From Planctomycetota bacterium (GTDB lineage: Bacteria > Planctomycetota > Phycisphaerae > WQYP01), in NCBI GenBank assembly GCA_021804985.1, contig JAJZGD010000001.1:9827-73826 (forward strand): a stretch of DNA of 64,000 bases, read 5' to 3'. The position numbers were made by a program, and so were the translations under genes. The notes under the pieces are model-generated. The model did no database searches. It was not told where the DNA came from and was given only the letters and a program-made list of their open reading frames with translations. How positions within the stretch are numbered: position 1 is the stretch's first letter; every line of letters begins with the position of its first letter. This document shows, piece after piece, positions 8,543-28,014 of the stretch.

Positions 8543-8920
8543 TCATTTCGCAGGGAAATGGCATCGAATAACCGAACGCAGGCCGCCGCGGGGTGTCCAT
8601 TGGCTGATAACTTCGAGGCGGCGCGGCTTGAGGACGGCCATCAAGTCATCAAAAATGACATTGGTAACGTCCTCATAAAAGATGCCGCGATTTCGATAAG
8701 CCTGCAGATACATTTTCAGGCTTTTCAGTTCAACGCAGCATTGGTCCGGCACATAAATGAAGGTGAAGGTGCCAAAATCAGGCTGGCCGGTCTTGGGGCA
8801 TACGGAAGTAAATTCCGATGCGAAATGCTCAATTTCATAATCTCGGTGGGGATGCGGATTAATAAAAGTTTCTAACATCGCCGCTCCGGCCGTCGCCTTA
8901 ATCACCGTTTTTTTTGCCAT
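8543..8920 (-). CDS. queF: NADPH-dependent 7-cyano-7-deazaguanine (preQ0) reductase
   Basis: QueF signature [14 protein letters not shown] and C-terminal TPRGG; ATG at 8920 preceded by GGAAGTGAG; alternative GTG start at 8959. Confidence 0.85.
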
Positions 8921-9012
8921 TGTGCTCACTTCCAGGGGTTCAACTAAATGAAATTCCACCGCGACACCATTTTAACGCCACCGCTGGCTATTTTGCGATG
9001 CATCGGCCGCGC

Positions 9013-9708
9013 TCAGGTGCCCCGGCGATTTCCGTAAAGCCAAATATGCAGGCGAGATCCAAACCGATACCCCTTGTCGCGGCAGATGTCCGCCAGCCAC
9101 ACCGCACGCTCATGCAGCGTTTTATCGTCAATTCCCTCCGGCATCAAAATTACATCGTCCCGGCGAATATTTCCAAGGCTGGCCATGAGCGATTCAATTT
9201 CAACCATGTCCGAAGGATTCGTCACGACAAATTTCCATTGTCGATCGGCGATCCGCGGTGCGCCGGCGAACCGCTGCAACACAGGAATATTTATGCGACG
9301 CTCGTCATGAAGAGCCGCCCAATTGCCCTCCGCAGAAACGCCCGGCGATGAATTCGCAAGTTTGGGGCTTATGCTCGCCAAGTCCGCTGCGACGTCTTGC
9401 CAAATGGTTCCGGCGGTCTCGATCGTGATGTGGCAACCGATCTGCTTCAAGCCGGTGATCAGCTGCGATAGCTCCTGCTGGATCAGTGGCTCACCACCGG
9501 TGAGCACCACATGCCGCAGTGAAAGCTGCTTTACCCGATCGATCAATTCATTCACAGCCGTGTCCGTTCCCTCCGGCCGCCAAGATGCATACGGCGTATC
9601 GCACCAACCGCATCGAAGGTTGCACCCGGAGGTGCGAATGAAAACGCTCGGCACGCCCGTTAGCTTCCCCTCTCCCTGAATGCTGGCAAAGACTTCCGCG
9701 ATCTTCAT
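9013..9708 (-). CDS. queE: 7-carboxy-7-deazaguanine synthase (radical SAM)
   Basis: N-terminus [14 protein letters not shown] and radical-SAM cysteine cluster [11 protein letters not shown]; start codon overlaps queC stop (ATGA). Confidence 0.85.
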
Positions 9709-10430
9709 GCGCCGTCGACCCCGACGGGGGCATAGGCGATGGGATCGGCCACGCCGACCTGGGCGAACGCTTCGAGCCGAAGCTTGCAGGCATCGCACCG
9801 GCCGCAGCTGTGGGCATCATCGGGTGGGTCGTAACATGAAAAAGTGCTGGCATAATCAACGCCCAGTTGCAAACCCGCACGGATGATGTTCGCCTTTCGC
9901 ATTTCAATAAGCGGGGTGCGAAGCTTAATGGTTCGATGATCGGCCACGCCAGCTTTGGTAGCGAGCGCCGCTAATTTTTCAAATGCCGCGATGAACTCGG
10001 GCCGACAATCCGGATAGCCGGAGTAGTCCAGGGCATTTACCCCCAGATAAATATCATCGGCGTCAAGCACCTCGGCCCATCCCAGCGCGCAGGATAAAAA
10101 TATGGTGTTGCGCGCCGGAACATACGTCACCGGAATGTCCCTGGATATCGCCTCCGGCGCCCGATCTTTAGGCACCTGGATGTCGCCGGTCAGCGCCGAA
10201 CCGCCAAACTGCTGTAAATCAAGTTTCAAAATTACATGACGCCGAACGGCGGGATGCTTTGCCAGTTTGGCGGCGGATTGCAGTTCCCGCCGGTGACGTT
10301 GGCCGTAGTCGAAACTTAACGCGTAACAGGCATATCCGTCGGCGGCGGCCATGGCCAAAACCGTTGCAGAATCCAAACCACCACTTAACAGCACGACGGC
10401 AGGTTTCAATTTCGATGCTCCAATTCGCAT
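9705..10430 (-). CDS. queC: 7-cyano-7-deazaguanine synthase
   Basis: N-terminal PP-loop [13 protein letters not shown] and C-terminal zinc-binding cysteines (CGRCDAC). Confidence 0.9.
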
Positions 10431-11038: not shown

Positions 11039-12013
11039 ATGAAATACGAATCGCCACCTCTGTCACAATTTGCGTTCGATTACGAATCTAAGCGGATCGG
11101 CAAGTCACTAATTGTGCATGCGGATTGTCTGGAATGGCTGGGTCGCGTGCCGAAGGACACTTTGCACGGAATCGTAACGGACCCGCCGTACGGGGTAAAG
11201 GAATACGATTTTGATCAATTGGAAAAGCGGGCCAACGGTAACGGCGGCGTCTGGCGTATCCCACCTTCATTTGATGGGCATACCCGTGCACCGCTGCCAC
11301 GGTTTACGGCGCTCGATGGACAGGATCGCATGCGATTGAGCCGGTTCTTCACGGAATGGGCACGCGCGGCAGGCCACGCATTGCGACCCGGAGGGCATGT
11401 GTTCATTGCCACAAATGCCTTCTTGGCACCGTTGATGTATTCGGCCCTTATGGCCGGTGGGTTGGAATTTCGCGGACAGATTATTCGCCTGGTGCGAACA
11501 CTCCGGGGCGGTGACCGTCCGAAGAATGCGGAGGTGGAATTTCCCGGGGTGTCGTCCCTGCCCCGTGGATGCTATGAGCCATGGGGCTTGTTCCGCAAAC
11601 CGATGTTGCTTGGAATGAAAGTCAGTGACTGCCTCCGTGAATTCCAGACCGGCGGCTTGCGACGGACTAAAGATGATCTACCGTTTTCCGACACAATTTC
11701 GAGCGGCCGGACGCCGCGCCGCGAAAGACTTATAGCGAATCATCCGAGCCTCAAACCCCAATCATTCTTGCGCCAGATCGTCCGCGCATCGTTGCCGATG
11801 GGAGTAGGCGTTGTGGCAGATCCGTTCGCTGGGTCAGGCTCCACGGTAGCGGCCGCAGAGGCGGTTGGCGCGTGGGCGATTGGTGTTGAGCGTTTCGCCG
11901 ACTATTTCGAAATGGCGCAGGATGCCATTCCACGACTGGCAAAGCTGAAACTGGACGAGAAGGCCACCGAGGAGATTGGAGCGAGAGAGTCCCAGTCGTT
12001 ACTTTTTGGTTGA
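11039..12013 (+). CDS. Type II DNA methyltransferase, beta-class N6-adenine or N4-cytosine specific
   Basis: motif IV IVTDPPYG near the N-terminus, AdoMet motif I DPFAGSGST near the C-terminus (beta-class circular permutation), HPSLKPQSFLRQIV segment typical of the N6_N4_Mtase family. Confidence 0.85.
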   Translation: MKYESPPLSQFAFDYESKRIGKSLIVHADCLEWLGRVPKDTLHGIVTDPPYGVKEYDFDQLEKRANGNGGVWRIPPSFDGHTRAPLPRFTALDGQDRMRLSRFFTEWARAAGHALRPGGHVFIATNAFLAPLMYSALMAGGLEFRGQIIRLVRTLRGGDRPKNAEVEFPGVSSLPRGCYEPWGLFRKPMLLGMKVSDCLREFQTGGLRRTKDDLPFSDTISSGRTPRRERLIANHPSLKPQSFLRQIVRASLPMGVGVVADPFAGSGSTVAAAEAVGAWAIGVERFADYFEMAQDAIPRLAKLKLDEKATEEIGARESQSLLFG

Positions 12014-14010: not shown

Positions 14011-14416
14011 TCAGGGTGCAATGGGTCCGGCATATTGCTCATCGGTCACCTTCTCCATCCAATTGACGGGCGAGCCATCCAACTTCTCCTGAATCGCAAT
14101 ATGACTCATGGCGGTGCTTGGTGTTGCGCCGTGCCAATGCCGTTCGCCGGGAGCAAACCAGACAACATCCCCCGCATGGATATGCTCAATCGGATTCCCT
14201 TCGCGCTGCACCATGCCGCAGCCGGCGGTGATGATCAGGGTTTGGCCGAGCGGGTGGGTGTGCCAGGCCGTGCGTGCGCCCGGCTCGAAGGTAACAAGTG
14301 CCATCGCGACGCGCGCCGGACTCGGCGGGCTGAACAAGGGGTCGATGCGAACGGTGCCCGTAAAATAGTCGACCGGGCCTTTGCCCGACGGTTGTGACCC
14401 GCAGCGTTTGATCTCC
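14011..14416 (-). CDS. cupin domain protein
   Basis: cupin motifs G(x)5HxH ([15 protein letters not shown]) and G(x)5PxG...H ([16 protein letters not shown]); ATG at 14416 preceded by AAGGAG 8 nt upstream. Confidence 0.65.
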
Positions 14417-14584
14417 ATAAAATATCTCCTTTGCTCATGGCTTTTGCGAGCAGGCCCGCCGACCCTATGCTCGGCCATTGCCTGAAAAGACTCAGCATGC
14501 CGTACCAGCGGATAACTCGCAAGTGGCGCGAGGCCCCTGCGCAGCTGGTGCGAGGCCGATGCCGAGATGGTGCGCGGCGAGCGT

Positions 14585-15883
14585 CTACTTCTGGGGTACC
14601 AAAGCCGTTCGGCCATCAACGAAATAGGCATGCTTACGTGCCAGGCATTGCTGGCGGAGGGCGGAAATTTTATGCGGGGCGGCAAATTTTAATTCGGGCA
14701 CCCATTTGATCATCGCCCGCGCACGATGCTCAAATTCGCGGCGAAGTGCCGGTTGCTTATTTCTCGGAGAATCAATCCAGACTGTGACGTGATCGGCGCC
14801 AAGCGCGTCGGAGGTGGCGTGCACCAGAAACTCGCCGGTGGCGGCAAAAGATCGCGCCAAATCAGCGAGTGCGGAAGCAAACGTCGATACCCCTTGCACT
14901 TTTAATAATTGGGCGGCTCGTCCGAGCACAGGTCCCAAGCGCGGGGTCTGGCGGCCACATGGGCACACGCCCCGATAAAGCGCAGCGATGTCGCCGGTGT
15001 CGTAGCGTAAAAGAGGCATGGCATCCTGCTTGAAAGGCGTTATGACGACGCGTCCCGGTGTGCCCGAAGCGCACGGTTGATCGGCGGCATCGAGAATTTC
15101 GACCATTCCCAGATGGGGATTAACATGGCCACCATCGCATTGGGGGCCTTGCGCCAATGTCGTGCAGGTTTCAGTGGTGGCGTATGTTGAAAGGAGCGGC
15201 GCCGATACGCAATGCATCAGGCTTTGGCTGAGTATATTGGGCGATAGGCTCGCATCGCGCAGGGGCTCGCCGATGCAAATAACGGCGGCCAGGTTTCGGG
15301 GCAACTTCAAACCACGCGAACACCAGGCAGCCAGCAAAGATGGGACGGCAATGAGAAACCAGCGGCCGCCAGGCTTGAGTGGGCGTTGGTGAAGCGTTTG
15401 AAAATCAGCCATGGCAGGGCCCATTCGCAAGCACGTTGCGCCGAGCCGCTGCGCACCGAGCCAATACGCCAACCCCGCCACAAACAAACGGTCCATGCCC
15501 ACACCAATGAGAACCCCGTCGCCGCGACGAATGCCGGCGAGGGCGAAGGCGGCCGCTTCATTTTCAGCCAGTCGGTTCAGGTCGCGCTCAGCCAGTGCGA
15601 TATGCACCGGCGAGCCTGTGGTTCCAGAGGTTGTTACCCATTCGCGGATAGCGGCAGCCGGCACGGCGAGAAAATCCAATCCATGGTTCACTAAATCGAT
15701 TTTTGTGGTTGTCGGCAGATTGGGAAATACTTTGGCGGCAGCCGCAGCCGATAGGGTCGGCAGGCCAATTCGCCTCAGATAAAATGGGGCCTTCAAGGCG
15801 TGTCGCATTTGCGCAAGCAGCAATGCATTGATGGCGGCGGTTTTTCGCGATTGGCGCCCCGCGCTGCGAATGTCTTTATGCAA
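14585..15883 (-). CDS. adenylate-forming acyl/aryl-CoA ligase, phenylacetate-CoA ligase (PaaK) / coenzyme F390 synthetase family
   Basis: AMP-binding motifs [13 protein letters not shown] and RYDTGD with the domain spacing typical of PaaK-like ligases. Confidence 0.7.
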
Positions 15884-15910
15884 TGGAACGATCTCCTGCT
15901 TGTTACGGTG

Positions 15911-18900
15911 TTATGGTGTTTTGGCCAGTCGCAGATATCGCCGAAGCGCCACACGTCTTGCCCGATATGGCGGATCCAGCAAAAGCGTTTTGGTTAAAAG
16001 GATTGCAGCCCGCTTTTTGCGACCCATGGCCAAATCGGCGCGGCCCGCTAGTTCATACGCGGAAAAGAAATCAGGATCATATTGCAATGCCACCATGGCT
16101 TTATGGTAGGCCAGCTTAAAATGGTTCTTGGCGAGGGCATGGTAGCCGGAATGCAGCGCCGCTCGGGCTATCTCAAAGCGATGCCAGCCGCCCGAAACTA
16201 AAAAATGGTCCGCGGGAATGGATGGCAAGAGAACTTTTGCGAGCGGCGGTGGCTCTTTAGAAAGCATGGGTAGCACCTTTACGCCGATATAGGCGCCTTC
16301 GGCATAGGGCCACGCCGCCACCCACAGTTCTCCGTTGGTTAAGTTCATAATGACCGAATGCGTAGCGATGAGCGCATCAATCGCATTCCGATTGCCGTAG
16401 CCGATAAACCGGCCATGCACGCTGGCTTTGTCTCTTAAAAGCTTCGCCAGATTAATCGCATTAACTTTTCCGCGCATGGCATTGATCAGCCGCAGGGCGC
16501 GTGCCATGCGAAACCGCGATGTAGATTGGCGGATTCGCGCTGCATTAACAGGATCGTTCCGAAATACCGGTGCGGTAAATTGATTGGCCACGGCGGCCCG
16601 CTGATCGACGTGAATCACGGCGCAATGCAGCGGCGATTTTTCAATGATTATGCATTGACCGGTTTTGCCGTCGCCCACCACAATGCTGTCGGCCACAAAC
16701 ACCGGCGCACGCCGGAAGATGGATACGGCTTGTGAAAGGCTGTGAGCAAACTGCAGCACCTGTCGCGCGACAATAATCGTCGGCTCACCGATCGGCTTAA
16801 AGCCGACCGTCGCGGCAGCATTGATAAACAAACCTATCTTCTCGCTATTAAAGCCGGTAACACAGCCGCTAAGCCCCGGCCACGCGACGGTCACAAAGCC
16901 GTACCCATGTGAGGGGCGAACGAAGGTGATACTTTTCTGCCGGTTAAAAGCCGGGCCGCCTTCAAAGTCAAAATTTCGGGCGAGCCATAGACAATTATCC
17001 CCCGACCACGCCGGGCACGCCGCAACGCCGGTACAGCCAACGGCGTGCGCATCAATCAGAGGGTTATCAATCAGGTTTTGAGATATGTCGTCGAGTGCTT
17101 CATAAGACAGCAGCCGCGCATAAGTAGGACTCAAATAGGCGTGTAAATCGGGATGCGAACGCGACTCGGCATAGACTTCATGGCGGATATAGGCGGGGAT
17201 ATAATGCGGCAGCCTAAGCATATCCAGTGCCACGCCGCGGGTGATGACCCACTGCGCCCAGAGTGATGGCACAAAATGATGCAATTGATCGAGCATGTCA
17301 TTTTCGATCTCGGTATCGACCGGGGCGCCCAGTGCACCGTCATCGTAGCCCAGTGTGCCCGATGAGCCGCCAACGGACATCACCCACACGCCGTGAACTC
17401 GGCGCATCCACGCATGACCAATTTTCCAACTATTCGGGCCGGTCTGCGTAACGGTGCGGTGCTGGGGCAATCGAACGGCCTTATCAGGGCGTGCGCTAGC
17501 CATCAGCAGTTGTCCGATGCATACCACCAGCATGGCCAGCGCCGCAGCCGCAGCGGCGATCCGAATCAGCCAAAGCAGCGCGGACTCGGGCACGCGTCGC
17601 CAGCTGCGGCAACCGCGGCAACGGTTATTAACGGTATGGCAGCACCAGCGCACGAATGGCCCAACGCAGAGCAATGCCGCAAGGTATCCGCCGCAGATTC
17701 CCGCCACGAGCGTAAGCCCCACCCAATGCAATGCCGGGTGAGCAGCCAGAATAATTGCACCCGAGCCTAATATGGTGGTCAGGGCGCAGATGCCGGTGGT
17801 AAGAATGCGCGGTGATGGTTTATCGGTGCGAAGTGCCGGATCGCTGGCGGTATAGACGCCGTAATCAATGGCGACACCCATGGTAAACAGCAGGGGTATC
17901 ATGGCGAGAAAATTCAGCCCCCCACCAATCCATTGCGCCACGCCTGCCAGCCAGATGAACCCGACCAACAGCGAAAGGGATGCGGCCGCCGCGATTTCCA
18001 ATCGGCGAAAATAGATGCAAACCGGCAAGAAAATGGCCAGGAACACCCAGGGAAAAAGGAACTCCGTCTGGGCCTTGGATTGCTGCGTAGCATTAAACAG
18101 CAGCGCGCTGCCATCAACGAGCAGTACGTGGGGAAATAGCAGTTCAATTTCGGAGGTCCAATCGGTTTGCATTCGCGGCGAGAGTTTGCGATTGGGATAG
18201 ACCACAGTCGCGAGGTAGTGGTGGCTGCGGATTTGAAATACTTGGCCAGGAAAAAGACTTAATGGTGAGTTGCGCAGCCGCGTCGGCGCAGCAAACTGCG
18301 TTGCACGGTGAAAAAACAAAGTGCTTTGCAATGACGGAGCGCGAAAGCCCTGGCGGCTTGCAGCGATTTTCAGGCGTGCATCGATGGCCGCAATCCGTGA
18401 GGCCGTCCAGAAATGCTGCCATCGGGCGATACGCCGGTTAAGCCGCCGGGTGTCCGGCAGCAGGTTGGAAGGTGAAATAAATCCGCCAATCAATTTTTCC
18501 CGCTTCATTCGCGCCAGATCGCTCTGGAGCATCTGCGTTTGCTTAAGCAGTTTGCCGGCACTTCGGCTGCGGGTAATAACCACTCCATGGTGGGCGCTGT
18601 TGCCCCATACTTTAAAAAAGCCTTGCTGCGCGGCCGTTTGTGCCGGGGACGCCCCATTTAAATCGGCGGGGTTAATGTTGTAGTGGAGTTTGGCGGCCTG
18701 CAGCAACAAAAAACTTGTCACGACGGAAAATGCGATAAATGCCACCCAGCGCACCCACCGCGGCAGAGCGAACTGTATTTCGATCGCACGTCGGGGACGA
18801 CAAAACTCGGAGAGATAGGCGGGCAGAATCAGGAACGTAACAAGCCATATCAGCAGCGTGCCCATCGCGATAAATAAACCCATCGCTCGCAGGCCGGGCG

Positions 18901-20119
18901 CCGTGCAGAACGCCAGCGCTCCATAGCCGGTGATGCTGGTCAGAGCGCTCATCGTAATAGGGCCAAACAGCGACCGTGCTGCGACCGCCGCCTCATTGGT
19001 ATGGCTGCCTGGCAACGGAGAGCGAGAACGGCCGTAGGCACCGAGTATTTGAATGCCATAATCAGTCGTAGCGCCAAGAATTAAGCCGGAGAAGGCTAAA
19101 ATCATCAGCGGCAGGTGCGCGCCCGTCAGACCCGATAGCCCCAGCGCCGTGCCAAGCCCCACCACCGGTGGCAGCATGCAGATAAGAAGCGTGCCGATCC
19201 GACGAAAATAGAACCAAATGACAGCCGCCACCAACAGCGTTCCAATGATGGAGACCACGGCAACATCGCGCTTGATTTGGGCGGCATTTTGGACGTACTG
19301 AGTGTAAGGGCCGATGATCCAAAAATGCACATGCGGATAGCGCCGCTGAATGCTCGCGGTTACCGACGAAAGCTGGTTTAGCATTTGCGCGGCGAGCCGC
19401 GTTTGCTGCGGCGAAAACGTCGGCGATAAAACGATCATCGCATGGGTGCGATTTTTGGCCATCAGCAGGCCACCGTTCATGGCCAGATGCGAAATGTTCA
19501 GCGGTGTGGCCGCATTTGCCGATTGCAGTTGCCGGTAAAGCAAGGTGCGGATCGCGAGAGGATCAGTCGTAAGGTTTGACAGATCGAGCAAACCCCCGGG
19601 GGCTTCAAGCCGTTCATGAATGTCGGCAAAGTGCTTCTGCATCCAAGGATCGCCGGTGCGAGCCTTAAGTTTTTGAAAGGATCGACGTGTCAGCAAGGCA
19701 GGAATATCCGCCGTAATGGTGCGTTGGGCCCGATTGAGCGCCGGCAGCGATACGCCATCCCAAAGTGTGCCAAAGATGGGATGCTTACGAAGCGCAGCCG
19801 CCATGGCCCGTACCGCGGAGGGCAATTGCTTTTTAAATTGCGGTTTGGTGTGCAGATCGATATGGAGCGAATCGGCAAGCTGCGGCAATGCGGATATCTG
19901 CCGCCAGGACTGCACCTGTCGGCTGTTTTGCGAAAAAAACAGCAGGACGTTGGTTTGCCAGTGGATGGCGGTGGAAGCGGCTGCGCAAAGCACGGCCGCA
20001 ACAACGAGAAACGCGGAAAGCCATCGGCGGTGGCGCCCCAAAAAGCCGTACCAATGTGCCATCAGTATTAGCAGCGGATCGCGATTTTGGCCGGCGCCCG
20101 GCGCGGCAGGCTCAATCAT
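15911..20119 (-). CDS. fusion protein: MMPL/RND-type exporter (12 TM with two large periplasmic loops) + extra TM + Ntn-hydrolase C45 acyltransferase-like domain + C-terminal TPR repeats
   Basis: two 6-TM bundles (approx aa 285-440 and 690-830) separated by soluble loops as in MMPL/HpnN exporters; Cys-rich linker WCCHTVNNRCRGCRSW; 13th TM (aa 850-870); soluble domain with HAVG|CTGVAACPAWSGDNCLWLARNFDFEGG resembling the Gly-Cys autoproteolytic/nucleophile site of C45 acyl-CoA:6-APA acyltransferase/choloylglycine-hydrolase-type Ntn enzymes; TPR-like tail aa 1300-1402. Confidence 0.6.
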   Translation of the reverse strand: MIEPAAPGAGQNRDPLLILMAHWYGFLGRHRRWLSAFLVVAAVLCAAASTAIHWQTNVLLFFSQNSRQVQSWRQISALPQLADSLHIDLHTKPQFKKQLPSAVRAMAAALRKHPIFGTLWDGVSLPALNRAQRTITADIPALLTRRSFQKLKARTGDPWMQKHFADIHERLEAPGGLLDLSNLTTDPLAIRTLLYRQLQSANAATPLNISHLAMNGGLLMAKNRTHAMIVLSPTFSPQQTRLAAQMLNQLSSVTASIQRRYPHVHFWIIGPYTQYVQNAAQIKRDVAVVSIIGTLLVAAVIWFYFRRIGTLLICMLPPVVGLGTALGLSGLTGAHLPLMILAFSGLILGATTDYGIQILGAYGRSRSPLPGSHTNEAAVAARSLFGPITMSALTSITGYGALAFCTAPGLRAMGLFIAMGTLLIWLVTFLILPAYLSEFCRPRRAIEIQFALPRWVRWVAFIAFSVVTSFLLLQAAKLHYNINPADLNGASPAQTAAQQGFFKVWGNSAHHGVVITRSRSAGKLLKQTQMLQSDLARMKREKLIGGFISPSNLLPDTRRLNRRIARWQHFWTASRIAAIDARLKIAASRQGFRAPSLQSTLFFHRATQFAAPTRLRNSPLSLFPGQVFQIRSHHYLATVVYPNRKLSPRMQTDWTSEIELLFPHVLLVDGSALLFNATQQSKAQTEFLFPWVFLAIFLPVCIYFRRLEIAAAASLSLLVGFIWLAGVAQWIGGGLNFLAMIPLLFTMGVAIDYGVYTASDPALRTDKPSPRILTTGICALTTILGSGAIILAAHPALHWVGLTLVAGICGGYLAALLCVGPFVRWCCHTVNNRCRGCRSWRRVPESALLWLIRIAAAAAALAMLVVCIGQLLMASARPDKAVRLPQHRTVTQTGPNSWKIGHAWMRRVHGVWVMSVGGSSGTLGYDDGALGAPVDTEIENDMLDQLHHFVPSLWAQWVITRGVALDMLRLPHYIPAYIRHEVYAESRSHPDLHAYLSPTYARLLSYEALDDISQNLIDNPLIDAHAVGCTGVAACPAWSGDNCLWLARNFDFEGGPAFNRQKSITFVRPSHGYGFVTVAWPGLSGCVTGFNSEKIGLFINAAATVGFKPIGEPTIIVARQVLQFAHSLSQAVSIFRRAPVFVADSIVVGDGKTGQCIIIEKSPLHCAVIHVDQRAAVANQFTAPVFRNDPVNAARIRQSTSRFRMARALRLINAMRGKVNAINLAKLLRDKASVHGRFIGYGNRNAIDALIATHSVIMNLTNGELWVAAWPYAEGAYIGVKVLPMLSKEPPPLAKVLLPSIPADHFLVSGGWHRFEIARAALHSGYHALAKNHFKLAYHKAMVALQYDPDFFSAYELAGRADLAMGRKKRAAILLTKTLLLDPPYRARRVALRRYLRLAKTP

Positions 20120-20877
20120 GGCGGCCCCACCGGCTTGAAGAGATTGAGGGGAAATACCGGATTAATCGCGGTGCGCGAAAACCAGTAAGTCACGGCCCCT
20201 TGACGCGTGTGAATTTCAATGGCCGCGAGAAAATCTGAATGGCGATCGAAGAACAGTCTGATTTTTGACACTTTGGCGCGCATGGCTTTGAGCCGTGGTA
20301 TCAGGCTAAAGGCCCAAACGCCACCGGTTGGTGCGGGCGCATAATGCACATCACGGCGTGGTGGTTTGGGCAGCATGCGGTGAGATAATGCGATGCGCCC
20401 CCACCGCGTCAGGGCCTTGGCGTTGGGACTGCTGCCAAGGGTGGCAAAGTAGCCCATGATGTAAGCAATTTTCGCTCCGCTGGCGCCTTTTATGCGCTTC
20501 CAGCCATGGCCGACGCGGCATGCAAAAAGCCGCTTGCCGTCGAGCAGATAGACGGCCGGGGTGGGCCATTGGATCGCATAGCGTACCCGCTGTGACCGCT
20601 CAAGGCAGATGGTTCCGCCACTAGCAAACCCATGGGTTAAAAGCGGGGATTTTTCATAGCAGAAAAAATGGGATTTGAGGCGGTTCCACTTCTGGGCAGC
20701 AAGTATCGCCGCCATTCGCGCGGCGGGATTTAAATGGCTGGCCTTTGCCGCGATTGCCGTTGCTCGTACGGCAAGCATCGGCAGCATAATTGCAAGGACG
20801 ATCGCCACCACTGCCGGGCCTATGCGGCAGAGAAACCGAGTGCAAAAGTTTAATCGCTTAGCCATATCCACCGACAT
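20116..20877 (-). CDS. membrane-anchored hypothetical protein, possibly LolA-like lipid/lipoprotein carrier
   Basis: N-terminal TM/signal anchor; beta-rich C-terminus (IRLFFDRHSDFLAAIEIHTRQGAVTYWFS...NPVFPLNLF) reminiscent of LolA-like proteins; stop overlaps start of the exporter gene (ATGA). Confidence 0.35.
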   Translation of the reverse strand: MSVDMAKRLNFCTRFLCRIGPAVVAIVLAIMLPMLAVRATAIAAKASHLNPAARMAAILAAQKWNRLKSHFFCYEKSPLLTHGFASGGTICLERSQRVRYAIQWPTPAVYLLDGKRLFACRVGHGWKRIKGASGAKIAYIMGYFATLGSSPNAKALTRWGRIALSHRMLPKPPRRDVHYAPAPTGGVWAFSLIPRLKAMRAKVSKIRLFFDRHSDFLAAIEIHTRQGAVTYWFSRTAINPVFPLNLFKPVGPP

Positions 20878-20950
20878 GTTAACGGAAAGTCAACACGTAA
20901 AGCTGCGCCGCGCTGAAATCAGCGATAGTGGTCAGCCGGCGCTGATCGCG

Positions 20951-20956
20951 TATAAT
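20951..20956 (+). promoter_or_regulatory. candidate -10 box (TATAAT) in divergent intergenic region
   Basis: exact TATAAT hexamer read directly 18 bp upstream of the 20974 ATG; no convincing -35. Confidence 0.2.
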
Positions 20957-20973
20957 CATGCCCGGCGTGGTGG

Positions 20974-23900
20974 ATGTATCAGCCCATCATGGGCAAAGTC
21001 GGGATTCGCTGCAGCTTACCCATGCTGCAGAGGGGGGCGGTATCTGCAAAAGGTTTCATTTCCATGCCCATCCGCGTCGCTCTAAATCACGTTACTCGCT
21101 ATAAATATGATCGCTATGTGCGCATGTCGCCGCACGTGGTTCGGCTGCGTCCCGCTCCGCATACCCGCACGCCGATCCTCACTTACCGTTTGAAGGTGGC
21201 GCCGGAAAAGCACTTTATTAATTGGCAACAGGATCCATATTCCAACTATTTGGCGCGGCTTGCCTTCCCGGAACCCGCCACCGAGCTGCGCGTAGAGGTT
21301 GATCTGACCGCCGACATGACGGTGATCAACCCGTTCGATTTTTTCGTTGACGCGGCCGCGGAAAAATATCCTTTTGAATATGACGCCGTGATGAAAAAGG
21401 AACTCCAGGCCTATTTGGAAGTGGGTCCGCCTGGCCCTGAACTTGCCAAGCTGATTGCGGCGCACCAGAGACGTGGTTTACGTTCGATTGATTTTCTGGT
21501 GGATCTGAATCGTGATATTCACCAAAGGCTCAAATATCTTATTCGCATGGAGCCGGGCGTACAGTCCCCGGCGGAAACGCTCCGTATGGGGATGGGATCA
21601 TGCCGCGATTTTGCGTGGCTGCTGGTAAATCTGGCCCGAAATTTGGGACTGGCAGCCCGCTTCGTATCCGGCTATCTGATTCAGTTGGTGGCGGATGTAA
21701 AGCCCTTGGATGGGCCGGCGGGAACTCCGGTAGATTTTACCGACCTGCATGCATGGGCCGAGATATATCTGCCGGGTGCCGGTTGGGTAGGGTTGGATTC
21801 CACGAGCGGCTTATTTACCGGCGAGGGTCATATTCCCCTGGCATGCACGGCGGAGCCGAGTTCAGCATCGCCGGTAAGCGGCATGGTGGATGATTGCAAC
21901 GTCGAATTCAGTTTTGAAATGTCCGTGCGGCGCATCTTTGAAAGCCCGCGTGTAACCAAGCCGTATACGCCCGAACAATGGCAGAAAATCATCGATCTCG
22001 GGCACCGCGTTGATACGGATATTCAGGCGTCGGACATTCGACTGACGGTTGGTGGGGAGCCGACGTTCGTATCGGTGGATGATATGGATGGCGCCGAGTG
22101 GAACACCACGGCCATGGGCCCGCGGAAGCGTCTGCTCGCCGGAAATCTTCTGAAGCGATTGCAGAAGCGCTTTGCGCCGGGGGGCTTTCTGCATCATGGT
22201 CAGGGCAAATGGTATCCGGGCGAATCGTTACCCCGGTGGACATTTGGCTGCTATTGGCGCAAGGATGGGCAGCCCATATGGCAAAACCCGGCACTGATCG
22301 CCGACGAAGATCAAAGTTACCAATACGGCCCGACCCACGCCCGTGAATTTCTGCAAGAGCTTATCAAGCGTTTGGGTGAAGGGGCGCTTTTAGAGCACGC
22401 CCTGCCCGCCTTTGAAGATGTCTGGTATTACCTCTGGAAAGAGCGGCGGCTGCCCGCCAATGTCGATCCATTTGTTAACCATCTGGAAAACCCGGAAGAT
22501 CGGGCACGGCTCGCCAAAGTATTTGAGCAGGGGCTTGATCAGAATGTCGGTTATGCGCTGCCGATTCGCAATCTTGGCAGTGCGGGCAGTGGCTATTGGC
22601 AGACCGGTTCGTGGTTCTTCCGGTCGGAGCGCATGTATCTTATTCCTGGCGATTCGCCCATGGGTTACCGTCTGCCGTTGGATTCTTTGCCATGGGTTCC
22701 CAAGGCTGATTTTCCTTACATATACCATCATGATCCAATGGAAACGCTGCGGCCATTGCCGGCGGCGCGACTGCGGCAGCGGTACGTCAGCGGAGCGCCG
22801 GAGGCAGTTACGCCGCCGGGCATTCGTGAGCAATCGCTCGATGACATCGCGGGGCCCGACGGCACCATGAGCGAAGGTTTGCTCGCGGAATACCGACGCC
22901 TTCTGGCGGAAAATCCTCCCGGAGAGTTTGAAGCCGGCAAACCCGCGCCGTGGATCATCCGCACGGCTTTATGCGTTGAACCGAGACAGGGAATTCTGCG
23001 CATTTTTATGCCGCCGGTGCGCGACACGGAAGATTATCTTGATCTTATCAGTCGCGTGGAGGAAACGGCAGCGTATCTTTCCATGCCAGTCATGTTTGAA
23101 GGTTATCCCCCCCCACCGGATCCCCGGCTCAACGTGCTCAAGGTGACGCCCGACCCCGGCGTCATTGAAGTTAATATTCATCCGGTAACGACATGGGATG
23201 ACGCGGTCAGCGTTACCACGGGTCTTTACCAGGATGCACACGAATCGCGCCTGGGCACGGAAAAATTCATGCTGGATGGCCGGCATTCAGGCACGGGCGG
23301 CGGCAACCACATTGTTGTGGGCGGCAGCACGCCTTCGGATTCGCCATTTCTGCGCCGGCCCGATTTGCTCAAGAGCCTCGTATCGTTTTGGCATAACCAT
23401 CCGTCGTTGTCTTACCTTTTTTCGGGAACGTTTATTGGCCCGACCAGCCAGGCGCCGCGGGTGGATGAAGGCCGGTTTGATAACACCTATGAACTGGAAA
23501 TTGCGCGGGGCGAAATTGGCAAGGCCGGTGCGGAAACGCCGCCTTGGATGGTCGATCGCATTTTCCGAAATTTGCTGGTGGATCTGACGGGCAACACGCA
23601 TCGGGCGGAATTCTGCATCGACAAGCTATACAGCCCCGATTCGGCCGCCGGCCGCATGGGCGTCGTGGAGTTCCGCGGTTTCGAAATGCCGCCCCATGCG
23701 CAAATGTCGCTCACGCAGCAGCTGCTGCTGCGTTCGCTGATCGCGCAGTTCTGGCATGAGCCTTATGAGGCCGGCCTGATACGGTGGAATTCGGAACTTC
23801 ATGACCGGTTTCTGCTTCCGCACTTTACCAACGCCGACTTTCAGGATGTGCTCGCGTCGCTCAAACGCCATCCGCTTGAACCGCAGTGGTTCGCTCCGCA

Positions 23901-24462
23901 CATGGAATTCCGCTTTCCGCAAATTGGCGACGTAACTTTACCGAGCACCGGCGGCGTAAAATTGGAACTGCGGCAGGCGATTGAGCCCTGGAACGTACTG
24001 GGCGAAGAACCGGGTGGTGGCGGAACCGTGCGCTACGTAGACTCGTCGGTTGAACGGGTTGAAATGAAGGTGCAGGGCCTGGTCGATGGGCGACACCGCG
24101 TGGCCTGCAACGGCGTGGAAATTCCGCTGCATGGCACCGGCGTGCGCGGCGAGTTTGTCGCTGGCGTGCGGTATCGCGCATGGCAGCCCGCCACCTGCCT
24201 GCATCCAACCATCGGCATTCATTCACCTCTGATTTTTGATCTGGTGGATACCTGGAACAACCGATCGGTCGGCGGGTGCACTTTTCACAGCGTGCATCCG
24301 GGCGGCCGCTCATTTGCCACCTTTCCTGTCAATAGCTTCGAGGCGGAATCCCGGCGAGCGGCACGATTCTTTAAATTTGGCCACACGCCCGGCCCCATCA
24401 CGCTCGAAGAGCTGGAGCGTTCCAAGGAATTTCCGCTTACGCTGGACCTTCGACGACTTTAG
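20974..24462 (+). CDS. large transglutaminase-like protein with C-terminal DUF2126-type domain
   Basis: Bact_transglu_N-like start (MPIRVALNHVTRYKYDRY, probable true start at 21064), transglutaminase core with Cys/His/Asp (GSCRDFAWLL, DLHAWAEIY, GLD), about 1100 aa architecture characteristic of DUF2126 proteins. Confidence 0.8.
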   Translation: MYQPIMGKVGIRCSLPMLQRGAVSAKGFISMPIRVALNHVTRYKYDRYVRMSPHVVRLRPAPHTRTPILTYRLKVAPEKHFINWQQDPYSNYLARLAFPEPATELRVEVDLTADMTVINPFDFFVDAAAEKYPFEYDAVMKKELQAYLEVGPPGPELAKLIAAHQRRGLRSIDFLVDLNRDIHQRLKYLIRMEPGVQSPAETLRMGMGSCRDFAWLLVNLARNLGLAARFVSGYLIQLVADVKPLDGPAGTPVDFTDLHAWAEIYLPGAGWVGLDSTSGLFTGEGHIPLACTAEPSSASPVSGMVDDCNVEFSFEMSVRRIFESPRVTKPYTPEQWQKIIDLGHRVDTDIQASDIRLTVGGEPTFVSVDDMDGAEWNTTAMGPRKRLLAGNLLKRLQKRFAPGGFLHHGQGKWYPGESLPRWTFGCYWRKDGQPIWQNPALIADEDQSYQYGPTHAREFLQELIKRLGEGALLEHALPAFEDVWYYLWKERRLPANVDPFVNHLENPEDRARLAKVFEQGLDQNVGYALPIRNLGSAGSGYWQTGSWFFRSERMYLIPGDSPMGYRLPLDSLPWVPKADFPYIYHHDPMETLRPLPAARLRQRYVSGAPEAVTPPGIREQSLDDIAGPDGTMSEGLLAEYRRLLAENPPGEFEAGKPAPWIIRTALCVEPRQGILRIFMPPVRDTEDYLDLISRVEETAAYLSMPVMFEGYPPPPDPRLNVLKVTPDPGVIEVNIHPVTTWDDAVSVTTGLYQDAHESRLGTEKFMLDGRHSGTGGGNHIVVGGSTPSDSPFLRRPDLLKSLVSFWHNHPSLSYLFSGTFIGPTSQAPRVDEGRFDNTYELEIARGEIGKAGAETPPWMVDRIFRNLLVDLTGNTHRAEFCIDKLYSPDSAAGRMGVVEFRGFEMPPHAQMSLTQQLLLRSLIAQFWHEPYEAGLIRWNSELHDRFLLPHFTNADFQDVLASLKRHPLEPQWFAPHMEFRFPQIGDVTLPSTGGVKLELRQAIEPWNVLGEEPGGGGTVRYVDSSVERVEMKVQGLVDGRHRVACNGVEIPLHGTGVRGEFVAGVRYRAWQPATCLHPTIGIHSPLIFDLVDTWNNRSVGGCTFHSVHPGGRSFATFPVNSFEAESRRAARFFKFGHTPGPITLEELERSKEFPLTLDLRRL

Positions 24463-24508
24463 GCGCCCTTGTGGCGAACGATGCATTTATGGATGATCAT
24501 GGACGATT

Positions 24509-27073
24509 ATGACGGCCGGCCAAGTCGATATTTCTGCAGCGGACGAAGCCCAGGGGCCCGGGGGGCTGTTTGGTGCCTACCGCACTGACTCGCAGGTGCC
24601 CGATGAGATGATGGACGCAAGGGGCGCCGTGCGGCCGCACTGGCAGATGATCACCAATCTGCTTGATGATCTCGGCCCTACCGAGCTCGAGCGGCGGTGG
24701 GCCACATCCCGCCAGTTAATTCACGACAACGGCGTTACCTACAATGTCTATGGCGATCCCGCCGGTTTGGATCGGCCGTGGGTGCTTGACGCGCTGCCAT
24801 TGGTCTTTTCGGCTTCGGAGTGGGCCACCCTCAGTGAAGGTCTTATCCAGCGTGCGAGGGTACTTGATCTGGCCTTGGCCGATCTTTACGGCCCGCAGAA
24901 ACTTCTGCAGGATTCAGTTATTCCACCGGAAGTGATATTTGCGAATCCGAGCTTCCTGCGCCCGTTGCGTGGTGTGCGGCCCGAAGGCAACCGCTGGCTG
25001 CACATGGCCGCGACGGATGTGGGCCGCAACCGCGACGGCACGCTATGTATTTTGACGGATCGCACGCAGGCGCCATCCGGCGCCGGCTACGCGCTGGAAA
25101 ATCGGATCGTCATCTCGCGCGCCCTGCCGGATATCTTTCGCGATTGCCGCGTCAGCCGACTCGCCACCTTTTTTCGGTCGATGCGGAATCTTTTACAGAT
25201 GATGGCACCGCGTAGTCGGGAAAATCCGCGTATCGTGCTATTAACGCCTGGCCCATACAACGAAACCTATTTTGAACACGCGTATCTCGCCCGCTATCTC
25301 GGGTATACCCTGGTTGAAGGGGCGGACCTTACCGTACGAGATAATCGTGTATATATGAAGATGCTTGGTGGTTTGCAGCAGGTGGATGTGATTTTACGCC
25401 GTCAGGACGACGTATATTGCGATCCATTGGAACTGCTGCCCGATAGCGCGCTGGGGATTCCGGGGCTTGTTCAGGCGGTGCATTCGGGACAGGTCACGGT
25501 GGCCAATGCACTCGGTTCAGGTGTGATGGAATCGCCGGCAATCGAAATGTTTATACCGCGTATCTGTCGGCATTTGCTGGGCGAAGAGTTAAGACTTCCC
25601 GCGGTCCGTTCATACTGGTGCGGCGATCCGGAGGCACTCGGATATGTGCTGGCCAATCTCAGCAGGATACTTATTAAGCCGGCGTTCTACACACCTGGGC
25701 AATTTCCCATACCCACCGAATCATTAACACAGGCGCAGCTCGCCGAGCTCCGCAGCAAAATCATCGCATATCCTTCAGAGTTTGTCGGCGAAGAACAGAT
25801 CCCTCTTTCAACGGCGCCAATTCTGGCTAACGGCCGGGTGGAACCACGACATATCGCCTTTCGCGCTCATATGGTTGCTAACGCCGATACCTACACGGTA
25901 ATGCCCGGCGGCCTGACGCGTTTTTCAATCTCGCCGGATTCGATGATCGTCGCCATGCAGCGCGGCGGCGGATCCAAGGATACGTGGATTCTCTCGGGCG
26001 GCCCGGTTGATCCCTTCAGCTTTCTCACCCCGCCCGGGGCCGCCGTGCGTATTTCCCGCGCCGGTGGCGATCTTTCCAGCCGCGTAGCTGACAATTTATT
26101 CTGGCTGGGCCGGTACGTGGAACGAGCGGAATCGCTGGCGCGTCTGGCACGCGGAATGGTTGCCCGACTGGTGGATCAAAACTTTGAATCCAGCGCGGAG
26201 CTGCCGATTCTGCTTACTGCCCTGATCGCGCAGGCCAATCTCAAGCCCCATGAAATTGCCGATCAAACGCGAGAATCGCTGCTCGCGGCCATTCTGCTGG
26301 ACGCCAAATATACCGATGGCCTGCAATCCACTCTCGGCGCGATTTATCAGTCGGCAAGTTTGGTGCGCGACCGAATGTCCATCGACACATGGCGCATCAT
26401 CAACCGGCTCGATCAAGACTTTACCACTCGGCCGACCACCACGCTGGAGCTTAGCGAACTGCTGGCATCATTGGACAAGCTTATCGTCACGTTTGCCGCG
26501 TTTGGCGGATTGGCGATGGAGTCGATGACGCGCGGCCTTGCATGGCGCTTTCTCGATATGGGCCGCCGCATTGAGCGCGGGCTAAGCATGGCGCAACTCT
26601 GCATTCATGCAATGACACTTCCTCAGCCGCGCGAAGGGTTGATTCTTGAAGCGCTACTGGAAATCGCGGATTCCGCGATCACGTATCGTCGCCGTTACAT
26701 GACGACACTGCAGGTTCCGCTCGTGGCCGATTTGCTTCTGGCCGACGAGACCAATCCGCGTGCCGTAGCTTTTCAGTTGATGCGCATGCAGGAGCATCTC
26801 GGGGCGCTTCCGCGTCTTCATCAGGAAATCCAATTAACGCCTGCGGATCAAATTATTCTTCGGCGACTGACAGAACTTAGGCTCGCGGATTTCAGCCTGC
26901 TTTCGCCGATGGAAGGTGCCCAACGCACCCACCTGCGAAGCATGCTTGAAAATATGACGGCGGACTTATTCAAGCTTTCCGATCTGCTGAGCCAAACCTA
27001 CCTGAGCCATGCGGGGCCCGGACGGCAGCTTGGCTCTCCGATACCGGCGAGTGCCGGCAAGGGAAGCAGTTAA
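24509..27073 (+). CDS. circularly permuted type-2 ATP-grasp amidoligase fused to alpha-E domain
   Basis: N-terminal CP-ATP-grasp pattern (VRPHW...GVTYNVYGD) followed by the helical alpha-E region in one 854-aa ORF; canonical partners of transglutaminase-like genes. Confidence 0.75.
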   Translation: MTAGQVDISAADEAQGPGGLFGAYRTDSQVPDEMMDARGAVRPHWQMITNLLDDLGPTELERRWATSRQLIHDNGVTYNVYGDPAGLDRPWVLDALPLVFSASEWATLSEGLIQRARVLDLALADLYGPQKLLQDSVIPPEVIFANPSFLRPLRGVRPEGNRWLHMAATDVGRNRDGTLCILTDRTQAPSGAGYALENRIVISRALPDIFRDCRVSRLATFFRSMRNLLQMMAPRSRENPRIVLLTPGPYNETYFEHAYLARYLGYTLVEGADLTVRDNRVYMKMLGGLQQVDVILRRQDDVYCDPLELLPDSALGIPGLVQAVHSGQVTVANALGSGVMESPAIEMFIPRICRHLLGEELRLPAVRSYWCGDPEALGYVLANLSRILIKPAFYTPGQFPIPTESLTQAQLAELRSKIIAYPSEFVGEEQIPLSTAPILANGRVEPRHIAFRAHMVANADTYTVMPGGLTRFSISPDSMIVAMQRGGGSKDTWILSGGPVDPFSFLTPPGAAVRISRAGGDLSSRVADNLFWLGRYVERAESLARLARGMVARLVDQNFESSAELPILLTALIAQANLKPHEIADQTRESLLAAILLDAKYTDGLQSTLGAIYQSASLVRDRMSIDTWRIINRLDQDFTTRPTTTLELSELLASLDKLIVTFAAFGGLAMESMTRGLAWRFLDMGRRIERGLSMAQLCIHAMTLPQPREGLILEALLEIADSAITYRRRYMTTLQVPLVADLLLADETNPRAVAFQLMRMQEHLGALPRLHQEIQLTPADQIILRRLTELRLADFSLLSPMEGAQRTHLRSMLENMTADLFKLSDLLSQTYLSHAGPGRQLGSPIPASAGKGSS

Positions 27074-27102
27074 CTTCAGGTAATCTGAGCAGCGAGTATT
27101 CC

Positions 27103-28014
27103 ATGGCCATCTACCGAATTCGGCATCTCACCCGGTACCGGTATCAAGAGCCGGTTACGGTTTGCCACAATATGGCTCATCTGATTCCGCGCGATTCGCC
27201 CCGTCATACCTGGACACAAATTGATCTGGATATTTCGCCGGCGCCATCCCGCGCCACCCGCAACGATTATTTCGGCAATCGGCTTACGGTTTTCTCTATC
27301 GAGGAGCCCCACCGCGAACTTCAAGTCGTTTCCCGCTGCATGGTCGATCTGGCGCCGCCGCGTACGGTGTCGCTTTTTCCCACCAGCCCATGGGAAATGG
27401 TACGTCAATCTCTGGCTGATCAGCCGCGGGGTGAAGTGCTTGCCGCGTCTGAGTTTCGCTTTAGATCTCCGCATGTGGAATGGAATTCTGATATTCAGGA
27501 ATGGGCGGCCATATCCTTTACGCCGCAACGACCCCTTGCGGAAGTGGTTCTGGATCTGTCGCACCGCATCCATACCCAATTTAAATTTGTCGGTGGCGCT
27601 ACGACGGTCGCGACCGAGGTGAGCGAAGTGTTCACGGAAAAAGTGGGCGTATGCCAGGATTTTGCCCATCTGGCGGTGGCATGCATGCGGTCCATGGGGC
27701 TGGCAGCTCGATATGTATCGGGCTATTTGGTAACCGTTCCGCCGCCCGGCAAGCCGCGGCTAATTGGAGCAGACGCATCGCATGCCTGGGTTAGTGTATA
27801 CGTTCCGGAACTTGGCTGGATGGATGTCGATCCCACCAACCATATCTGGCCGCTGGATAAACATATCACAGTGGCCTGGGGTCGCGATTTTTCTGATGTG
27901 TCACCGCTTCGCGGCGTGATTCTTGGCGGCGGCAAGCATGAAGTGATCGTAGCGGTGGATGTCATTCCATTGGACGGCCCGGACGATTCAACCGCGCCCC
28001 CAATTCATAATTGA
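27103..28014 (+). CDS. transglutaminase-like protein (Bact_transglu_N + transglutaminase core)
   Basis: MAIYRIRHLTRYRYQEPV start, catalytic Cys in GVCQDFAHLAV, His in ASHAWVSVYV, Asp in MDVDPTN. Confidence 0.8.
   Translation: MAIYRIRHLTRYRYQEPVTVCHNMAHLIPRDSPRHTWTQIDLDISPAPSRATRNDYFGNRLTVFSIEEPHRELQVVSRCMVDLAPPRTVSLFPTSPWEMVRQSLADQPRGEVLAASEFRFRSPHVEWNSDIQEWAAISFTPQRPLAEVVLDLSHRIHTQFKFVGGATTVATEVSEVFTEKVGVCQDFAHLAVACMRSMGLAARYVSGYLVTVPPPGKPRLIGADASHAWVSVYVPELGWMDVDPTNHIWPLDKHITVAWGRDFSDVSPLRGVILGGGKHEVIVAVDVIPLDGPDDSTAPPIHN

Follow-up and report, generated by a model that had tools for sequence, protein, structure and literature searches.

Among the described systems most like the operon reported here are the aryl polyene (APE) and flexirubin pathways, and few families of bacterial gene clusters are as widespread as theirs. 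In the Escherichia coli APE pathway an adenylating enzyme primes synthesis, and ApeL (LolA-like), ApeM (an RND protein) and ApeN are the proposed machinery for delivery to the outer membrane; the finishing of the lipid and its outer-membrane transport in APE-type systems have only been proposed so far (PMC8253772; bioRxiv 10.1101/2020.12.19.423268). Flexirubin clusters encode, besides LolA and an exporter, a deacetylase, a PlsC-type acyltransferase and a glycosyltransferase (GT), and FlxY is the characterised 4-coumarate-CoA ligase of that pathway (PMC3992019). We analysed a 64,000-nt stretch of a Planctomycetota bacterium (Phycisphaerae; WQYP01), forward-strand positions 9,827-73,826 of contig JAJZGD010000001.1 in assembly GCA_021804985.1; this whole stretch is called the window, and all coordinates refer to it. 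It carries a trio of genes for a LolA-like protein, an MMPL exporter fused to a C45 enzyme domain and TPR helices, and an adenylate-forming ligase. We estimate at roughly 60% the probability that the trio is an operon for starter activation and export in an APE-like (aryl-polyene/flexirubin-type) envelope-lipid pathway, as a variant that occurs in Planctomycetota (Phycisphaerae). We favour this reading because of part-by-part homology and fold, the clusters found in relatives, the co-conservation of the three genes and their conserved active sites. Novel here is the C45-TPR module, joined to the exporter on what is predicted to be the periplasmic side.

The trio consists of three consecutive minus-strand open reading frames (ORFs): the LolA-like gene at 20116-20877 (253 aa), the fusion gene at 15911-20119 (1402 aa) and the ligase gene at 14585-15883 (432 aa, TTG start). 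The initial annotation had described three tightly packed genes, and the sequence bears out both their coordinates and their junctions. The first junction, at the end of the LolA-like gene and the start of the fusion gene, reads ...GGGCCGCCATGATTGAG..., the TGA stop of the former overlapping the ATG of the latter at 20116-20119 (ATGA). Between the fusion gene and the ligase gene lies a 27-nt spacer (15884-15910, minus strand) in which direct reading finds AGGAG 9 nt ahead of the ligase TTG. Gene calling done independently on the public contig returns the same trio with lengths of 231, 1402 and 432 aa. We take the ORFs as real genes rather than chance frames because homologues of all three keep the same order in dozens of genomes.

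What kind of transporter underlies the fusion? Residues 1-825 (17645-20119, minus strand) make up an MMPL/RND exporter core, delimited by Pfam, NCBIfam, phmmer and hydropathy, that has 12 transmembrane (TM) segments and two large loops on the periplasmic side, at aa 53-285 and 477-685. Pfam MMPL (PF03176) matches aa 240-453 at E 1e-10 (41.6 bits against a cut-off of 20.5), the NCBIfam models HAE3 and HpnN also match, and phmmer finds E. coli ApeM at E 2.3e-15. The Asp-Tyr proton-relay pairs D353-Y354 (TM4) and D752-Y753 (TM10) are invariant in an alignment of 15 full-length homologues, and by these pairs the exporter is predicted to be a proton-motive-force-type MMPL/RND transporter.

Beyond this core the protein continues into a 13th TM helix (aa 845-875, ESALLWLIRIAAAAAALAMLVVCIGQLLMAS; 17495-17587, minus strand; hydropathy peak 2.41, translation checked), by which the C-terminal module would cross the membrane. 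Next comes the pro-region, or alpha-subunit, of a C45 N-terminal nucleophile (Ntn) domain (aa 876-1028; 17036-17494, minus strand), recognised by alignment, model and Foldseek: it aligns with stand-alone members of the family from their N-terminal region onward, and the Foldseek match to the isopenicillin N-acyltransferase (IAT) precursor covers it. The catalytic beta domain (16220-17035, minus strand; Pfam, NCBIfam and Foldseek) starts at the predicted nucleophile Cys1029 (codon 17033-17035, VG/CTG). Pfam AAT (PF03417) matches aa 1038-1233 at E 4.7e-13 (49.8 bits, cut-off 23.2) and NCBIfam C45_proenzyme (NF040521) scores 136.8 bits against a cut-off of 85; together with the MMPL match, these uphold the MMPL-Ntn fusion named in the initial annotation. 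The motifs G-C1029-T-G, R1048/D1051 (RNFDFEGG) and G1242-N-R-N1245 are invariant in the same 15 homologues. An AlphaFold model of residues 825-1402 (pLDDT 93.1, pTM 0.92) places a single long helix at aa 845-875 (model residues 21-51), then the alpha-region, confidently modelled except for a low-pLDDT linker directly ahead of Cys1029, which opens a strand. The model thus shows a predicted Ntn alpha-beta-beta-alpha fold, with the presumed Gly-Cys self-cleavage site, VG/C1029TG, invariant. Its top Foldseek match is the IAT precursor (2x1c, E 1.9e-14, TM-score 0.74), followed by two lipid amidases, acid ceramidase (5u81, E 3.9e-11) and NAAA (6dxw, E 1.5e-9), and a PDB-sequence profile search agrees with this ranking. 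The C-terminus, from about aa 1305 to 1402 (15914-16207, minus strand), consists of TPR helices, seen as helical repeats in the model (residues 481-576), in profile matches to consensus TPR proteins and in Pfam TPR matches of homologues. With its catalytic residues intact, the C45 domain is a predicted Cys-Ntn enzyme fused to the transporter via the extra 13th TM helix.

On which side of the membrane would this enzyme work? Both termini of RND/MMPL proteins are cytoplasmic, as in the MmpL3 structures. Hydropathy finds here the canonical 12 MMPL segments plus the 13th at aa 845-875, and MMPL-only relatives (841 aa) stop soon after TM12. The best 150 C45-TPR relatives from a search of 1.84 billion cluster representatives fall into two size classes, stand-alone proteins of about 530-600 aa and fusions of about 1270-1460 aa. 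Some 100 stand-alone homologues have, almost without exception, one hydrophobic segment at the extreme N-terminus (a signal-anchor) and no other TM segment; it lies about 160-180 residues ahead of the catalytic Cys, which is the spacing from TM13 to Cys in the fusions. A sister clade, in which the exporter is fused to a predicted lipoprotein that we call lipoprotein X, keeps a lipobox-like segment (...LGGC) as its 13th TM. From hydropathy and family architecture we infer that the C45-TPR module is periplasmic, because TM13 follows a 12-TM core and the stand-alone homologues carry an N-terminal signal-anchor. Since the periplasm holds neither CoA nor ATP, a periplasmic C45 argues against acyl transfer from CoA to an amine and favours the processing of a lipid during or after its export.

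The product of the first gene (20116-20877, minus strand) is, by fold, family profiles and hydropathy, a predicted LolA-like periplasmic lipid carrier whose N-terminus (about aa 15-45) holds a signal peptide or anchor. All of the top 35 PDB matches that Foldseek returns for its AlphaFold 2 model (pLDDT 76.6, pTM 0.71) are LolA, at E 1.2e-10 to 5e-6, so the LolA-like label of the initial annotation is retained; the model and the hydrophobic N-terminus point to a LolA fold (an unclosed beta-barrel with a helical lid) with a secretion signal. NCBIfam LolA2_flexi matches weakly (E 5e-4), and neither BLASTP nor phmmer finds a match to E. coli ApeL. Pfam LolA (PF03548) matches 21 of its 26 aligned orthologues (best E 1.6e-16). 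A protein search with the sequence alone recovered just one copy, 98% identical, and the query alignment for the wider family search was built from locus sequences. The start of the gene is ambiguous (20811-20877): read from the ATG at 20877 it encodes 253 aa and has both an n-region and an h-region in proper form, the public call begins 22 codons later, within the hydrophobic segment (231 aa), and both lengths occur in public protein sets.

The third protein (432 aa; 14585-15883, minus strand) is a predicted cytoplasmic, FlxY-like adenylate-forming ligase of the PaaK superfamily, assigned by NCBIfam, a PDB match and motif conservation; it has no TM or other hydrophobic segment. Its best NCBIfam match, end to end, is FlxY_rubin (NF053551) at 305.8 bits, below the equivalog cut-off of 520; the DVU_1553 family scores 121 bits, the PaaK models score 92.2 (TIGR02155, cut-off 646.3) and 101.4 (NF041878, cut-off 700), and Pfam AMP-binding matches weakly. 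The closest solved structures are PaaK enzymes (4r1l, E 3.8e-20) and AjiA1. Across 32 orthologues the PaaK-like ANL motifs are conserved, namely the P-loop T85-P92 (TSGTTGxP), Y234-E238 (YATTE) and R293-D298 (RYDTGD), as are the C-terminal catalytic K417 and D423/R425. The initial annotation had called the enzyme a PaaK-family ligase. The superfamily and the quoted motifs, RYDTGD included, stand; a PaaK identity does not, with FlxY at 305.8 bits closer than PaaK at 92-101 bits, scores far below the PaaK equivalog cut-offs and no paa catabolic genes in the window. An ApeH orthologue was also considered and rejected in favour of a FlxY-like enzyme, as BLASTP and phmmer gave no match between the ligase and E. 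coli ApeH. The ligase appears by sequence to form a clade related to FlxY and not to be a FlxY equivalog. Four of its cysteines (C240, C249, C307 and C309, including a CPCGR motif) are kept in at least 95% of the 32 orthologues and may form a structural metal site.

How widely does this arrangement occur? The full-length fusion is rare: a search of 5.8 billion proteins yielded only about 17 homologues, the named ones from metagenome-assembled genomes (MAGs) of Phycisphaerae. Among 185,579 species genomes scanned there were 63 loci; those with full-length or C45-part similarity are all from Planctomycetota except two Myxococcota/Deltaproteobacteria MAGs (C45 only), and four weak MMPL-only matches came from mycobacteria. 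We surveyed the neighbours in all loci by tblastn of reference proteins. About 30 Planctomycetota MAG loci keep the trio together: the LolA-like gene lies immediately upstream of the MMPL gene in 33 of the 35 assessable loci, and the ligase gene within 3.5 kb downstream in 28 of 30. This supports the three-gene operon of the initial annotation.

That annotation had also seen an export pair of the aryl-polyene type, and the relatives support the link, for the more distant ones sit in complete APE/flexirubin-like clusters. Relatives of about 40% identity (loci L002, L005=L016, L017, L018 and L053) show the same gene order inside large clusters of this kind, and in L032, an MMPL-X fusion, the orthologous operon likewise lies within a large cluster. 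These clusters hold ketosynthase (KS), a NodB-like deacetylase, a PlsC-type acyltransferase, ApeP-like and ApeI-like dehydratases and acyl carrier protein (ACP), and further a LipA-type acyltransferase, GT2-DUF2062 and a radical-SAM enzyme. Their proteins match ApeD, ApeI, ApeP and both halves of ApeJ of E. coli CFT073, and for their ligase and LolA the highest scores come from the flexirubin models, FlxY and LolA2_flexi, below the equivalog cut-offs. Stand-alone C45-TPR genes of other Planctomycetota point the same way: among 22 loci they lie beside a NodB-like deacetylase in 13, KS in 12, a LipA-type acyltransferase in nine and GT2 in eight. The C45-TPR protein itself thus appears, from its gene neighbourhoods, to be a recurrent member of planctomycete APE/flexirubin-like clusters. 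In another planctomycete (L067, 13591-15129, minus strand) a phytoene-desaturase-like FAD amine oxidase gene separates the stand-alone C45-TPR gene from the KS/ApeJ-like genes, which suggests that this cluster variant includes a desaturation step.

In the window clade (about 60% identity; L003/4 and L008-L011) only the operon is common and the flanks are unrelated, with hydrogenase maturation genes in L003 and L009 versus a transglutaminase/ATP-grasp operon in the window; the same holds for a clade at 46% identity. Homology searches found none of the KS/chain-length factor, ACP, ketoreductase (KR), dehydratase, GT or acyltransferase homologues of the related clusters in the 64 kb window, as the initial annotation had stated for KS, ACP and KR. 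Of the APE/flexirubin-like export set, the LolA-like and MMPL components are present here and the third (LolB-like/DUF3261) is absent. Lipoprotein X, which takes that third position in relatives, showed no significant similarity to ApeN/DUF3261 (hhalign probability 0.2%) and has no Pfam or NCBIfam match.

The exporter has acquired partners more than once. MMPL genes of 1063-1123 aa in seven loci (L026, L027, L032 and L038-L041) are fused to lipoprotein X in place of C45-TPR, and MMPL-X is a second, independent fusion of a periplasmic partner to the same exporter. A second clade of MMPL-C45-TPR fusions (about 1290 aa) includes a 1272-aa protein in a MAG labelled Alphaproteobacteria (L072, 10001-15606), followed by an ApeJ-like GT2 and LipA-acyltransferase gene at a 4-nt overlap, with no LolA or ligase nearby. 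Because the MMPL-only and MMPL-X clades nest among the fused clades in a neighbour-joining tree of the MMPL parts (drawn without support values), with a fused sister group, the tree suggests an early origin of the MMPL-C45 fusion, followed by loss or exchange.

Several observations weigh against the APE-like reading. With no KS, ACP, dehydratase, GT or acyltransferase gene in the window, the link of this genome to an APE-like product comes by homology to other genomes, and KS/ACP-type genes lie nearby in only about five of about 24 long loci. The lipoprotein X gene, which lies between the MMPL gene and the ligase gene in all other clades, is missing from the window clade. Pfam LolA (PF03548) does not match the window protein at E 0.01, and to this are added the sub-cut-off FlxY score of the ligase and its want of an ApeH match. 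The topology of the C45-TPR module is a prediction from hydropathy and family architecture, the charge bias around TM13 does not settle its orientation, and the C45-TPR family is uncharacterised as to substrate, product and reaction type.

Do other explanations fare better? The initial annotation proposed a self-contained trio in which a cytoplasmic ligase makes an aryl- or acyl-CoA, C45 transfers the acyl group to an amine and MMPL and LolA export the product, on the pattern of PaaK and IAT in penicillin side-chain exchange. It is in keeping with this model that the best structural match of C45 is IAT with its catalytic residues conserved, that the ligase is PaaK-like with a nearest characterised relative that makes a CoA ester, and that conservation in the window clade extends to the trio alone. 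The side-chain-exchange logic, however, needs both enzymes in the cytoplasm, whereas TM13 and the signal-anchored stand-alone homologues place C45 outside it, away from CoA, and the ligase is FlxY-like; the next structural matches, acid ceramidase and NAAA, use no CoA, and in relatives the operon lies in a large cluster. We regard this model as quite improbable, the penicillin analogy being at odds with the compartment predicted for C45. Another explanation does without any polyketide-like pathway: MMPL and LolA would deliver a housekeeping lipid or lipoprotein of the outer membrane, a periplasmic C45 amidase/esterase would cleave an acyl group from it, and the ligase would re-activate the freed acid in the cytoplasm, so that the trio remodels or recycles envelope lipids autonomously. 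Most loci, the window clade included, do lack KS/ACP genes within 8-10 kb, the ligase always accompanies the export genes rather than the KS/ACP genes, and in fold C45 is similar to the lipid amidases NAAA and acid ceramidase. But the ligase family is of the aryl-acid type (FlxY, PaaK, AjiA1) and not of the fatty-acid type, no uptake component is present, and every wider association of the MMPL, C45-TPR, LolA and ligase genes is with APE/flexirubin-like biosynthetic genes, which makes such recycling unlikely in our judgement.

The absence of KS/ACP genes and lipoprotein X from the window could also be read as decay, leaving the trio a non-functional remnant of an APE-like cluster stripped of its biosynthetic genes. 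The genes do not look decayed: there are no frameshifts, the reading frame is intact across 1402 aa and translational coupling is preserved. Moreover, invariance across clades extends to the catalytic Cys, RNFD and GNRN as well as to the Asp-Tyr pairs and the motifs of the ligase, and the trio is kept in at least six window-clade loci at about 60% identity amid unrelated flanks. A remnant is very improbable.

How, then, might an APE-like activation and export operon work? The ligase would turn an aromatic or other carboxylic acid into its CoA ester or acyl-AMP, to be built into a lipid whose synthesis takes place in the cytoplasm or inner leaflet, the remaining biosynthetic enzymes being those encoded next door in some relatives and not in the window. 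The MMPL core would move the lipid to the periplasmic face. There C45, self-cleaved at Gly1028/Cys1029 and held in place through its membrane-tethered alpha-subunit, would remove or exchange an amide- or ester-linked acyl group on the exported lipid via an acyl-Cys intermediate, with no need of CoA or ATP. The LolA-like protein would shield the product en route to the outer membrane, and the TPR helices may dock a partner. Speculatively, an amino-sugar head group may be the substrate or acceptor, given how often a NodB-like deacetylase accompanies these genes. A bolder version would make MMPL-C45-TPR an undescribed class of RND lipid exporter with its own periplasmic Cys-Ntn acyltransferase/amidase, combining export with CoA-independent acyl exchange or removal on a single polypeptide. 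In the window clade the exporter, with no more than a LolA-like carrier and an aryl-acid ligase, would then be an autonomous system that builds or edits a novel Phycisphaerae outer-membrane lipid. We hold this version to be less likely than not.

An exporter fused to a conserved, apparently active Ntn acyl-enzyme points to an extracytoplasmic processing step that is missing from current models of APE-type systems, and offers a compact handle on it: one protein with one catalytic Cys. It also places the uncharacterised bacterial C45-TPR family, which numbers 256 cluster representatives at E <= 1e-30, in a genomic setting that suggests a candidate role. The envelope lipids of planctomycetes are poorly known, and a defined machinery for their export and maturation would be useful. 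Our literature search found no paper tying C45 peptidases to flexirubin/APE clusters or to MMPL proteins, and the only related mention was an antiSMASH 'arylpolyene' call for the cultured Phycisphaera mikurensis (PMC8882080).

The rest of the 64 kb window consists of housekeeping genes, with nothing APE-like. On the ORF map, a divergent intergenic region of 96 nt (20878-20973) separates the trio from the transglutaminase/ATP-grasp operon and is the presumed promoter region of the trio. Its single sigma-70-like match (plus strand, 20929-20956) faces away from the trio; the promoter scan identified no trio promoter, the promoter and terminator scans were uninformative, and an Rfam scan of the window gave no match. 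The divergent operon (20974-28014, plus strand) has three genes, for a transglutaminase-N/core plus DUF2126 'amidoligase' protein (1162 aa), a circularly permuted ATP-grasp plus Alpha-E protein (854 aa) and a transglutaminase-like protein (303 aa), and its adjacency to the trio is not conserved in relatives. A cupin gene (14011-14418, minus strand; 135 aa) lies 166 nt downstream of the ligase gene on the same strand; its product scores 202.9 bits against the NCBIfam equivalog cut-off of 140 for (R)-mandelonitrile lyase, and as it is not found beside the trio elsewhere it is probably unrelated. Both neighbours were considered as extra members of the trio and rejected, since the neighbourhood is not conserved in relatives. 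Farther off lie genes for QueF, a QueE-like radical-SAM protein and QueC (7-deazaguanine synthesis; 8543-10430, minus strand) and, divergent from them at about 600 nt, a gene for an N6/N4 DNA methylase (11039-12013, plus strand).

How does the trio compare with systems already known? In mycobacteria, Chp2 transesterifies acyltrehaloses at the periplasmic face, downstream of MmpL10 (PMC4183827). The MmpL10/Chp2, MmpL3-antigen 85 and FadD-Pks-MmpL systems differ from the trio in using a cutinase or alpha-beta hydrolase fold where a Cys-Ntn fold is predicted here, separate polypeptides where there is a fusion here, and a monoderm-like mycobacterial envelope where the trio has a diderm one with a LolA-type carrier. 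PvdQ is a periplasmic Ntn hydrolase that takes the acyl chain off an exported pyoverdine intermediate. A periplasmic Ntn enzyme acting on an exported biosynthetic intermediate is also the role proposed for the window C45; unlike it, PvdQ is a Ser-Ntn enzyme of another family, soluble and unfused, and its exporter is an ABC transporter. By analogy, the Chp2 and PvdQ precedents would fit the logic of periplasmic acyl processing, not the fold.

The fold is closest to that of IAT (MEROPS C45), acid ceramidase and NAAA, with which the window domain shares a Cys-Ntn architecture of alpha and beta parts, a Gly-preceded nucleophile Cys at the start of a strand, and conserved Arg/Asp and Asn residues. 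It differs from them in sequence (12-17% identity) and in being membrane-tethered, predicted periplasmic, fused to an RND protein and extended by a C-terminal TPR; for IAT there is the further difference that use of acyl-CoA is implausible in the compartment predicted for the window domain. Among biosynthetic pathways, flexirubin synthesis (FlxY and flxP-flxU of Chitinophaga pinensis/Flavobacterium johnsoniae) provides the best NCBIfam models for the ligase and the relatives' LolA, and the full clusters of relatives share its polysaccharide deacetylase, PlsC-type acyltransferase, GT2, LolA and exporter. The phylum is different, however, all scores lie below the equivalog cut-offs, and no TAL or DarA/DarB genes were seen. 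The APE system of E. coli CFT073 and Xenorhabdus matches the trio in having a LolA-like gene directly upstream of, and overlapping, the MMPL gene, an MMPL part homologous to ApeM and an adenylating enzyme in the set, and clusters of the trio's relatives hold homologues of ApeD, ApeI, ApeP and ApeJ. Unlike it, the window has a ligase that is not an ApeH homologue, no ApeN/DUF3261 and no KS/ACP/KR core, and its exporter bears a C45-TPR module that E. coli ApeM lacks.

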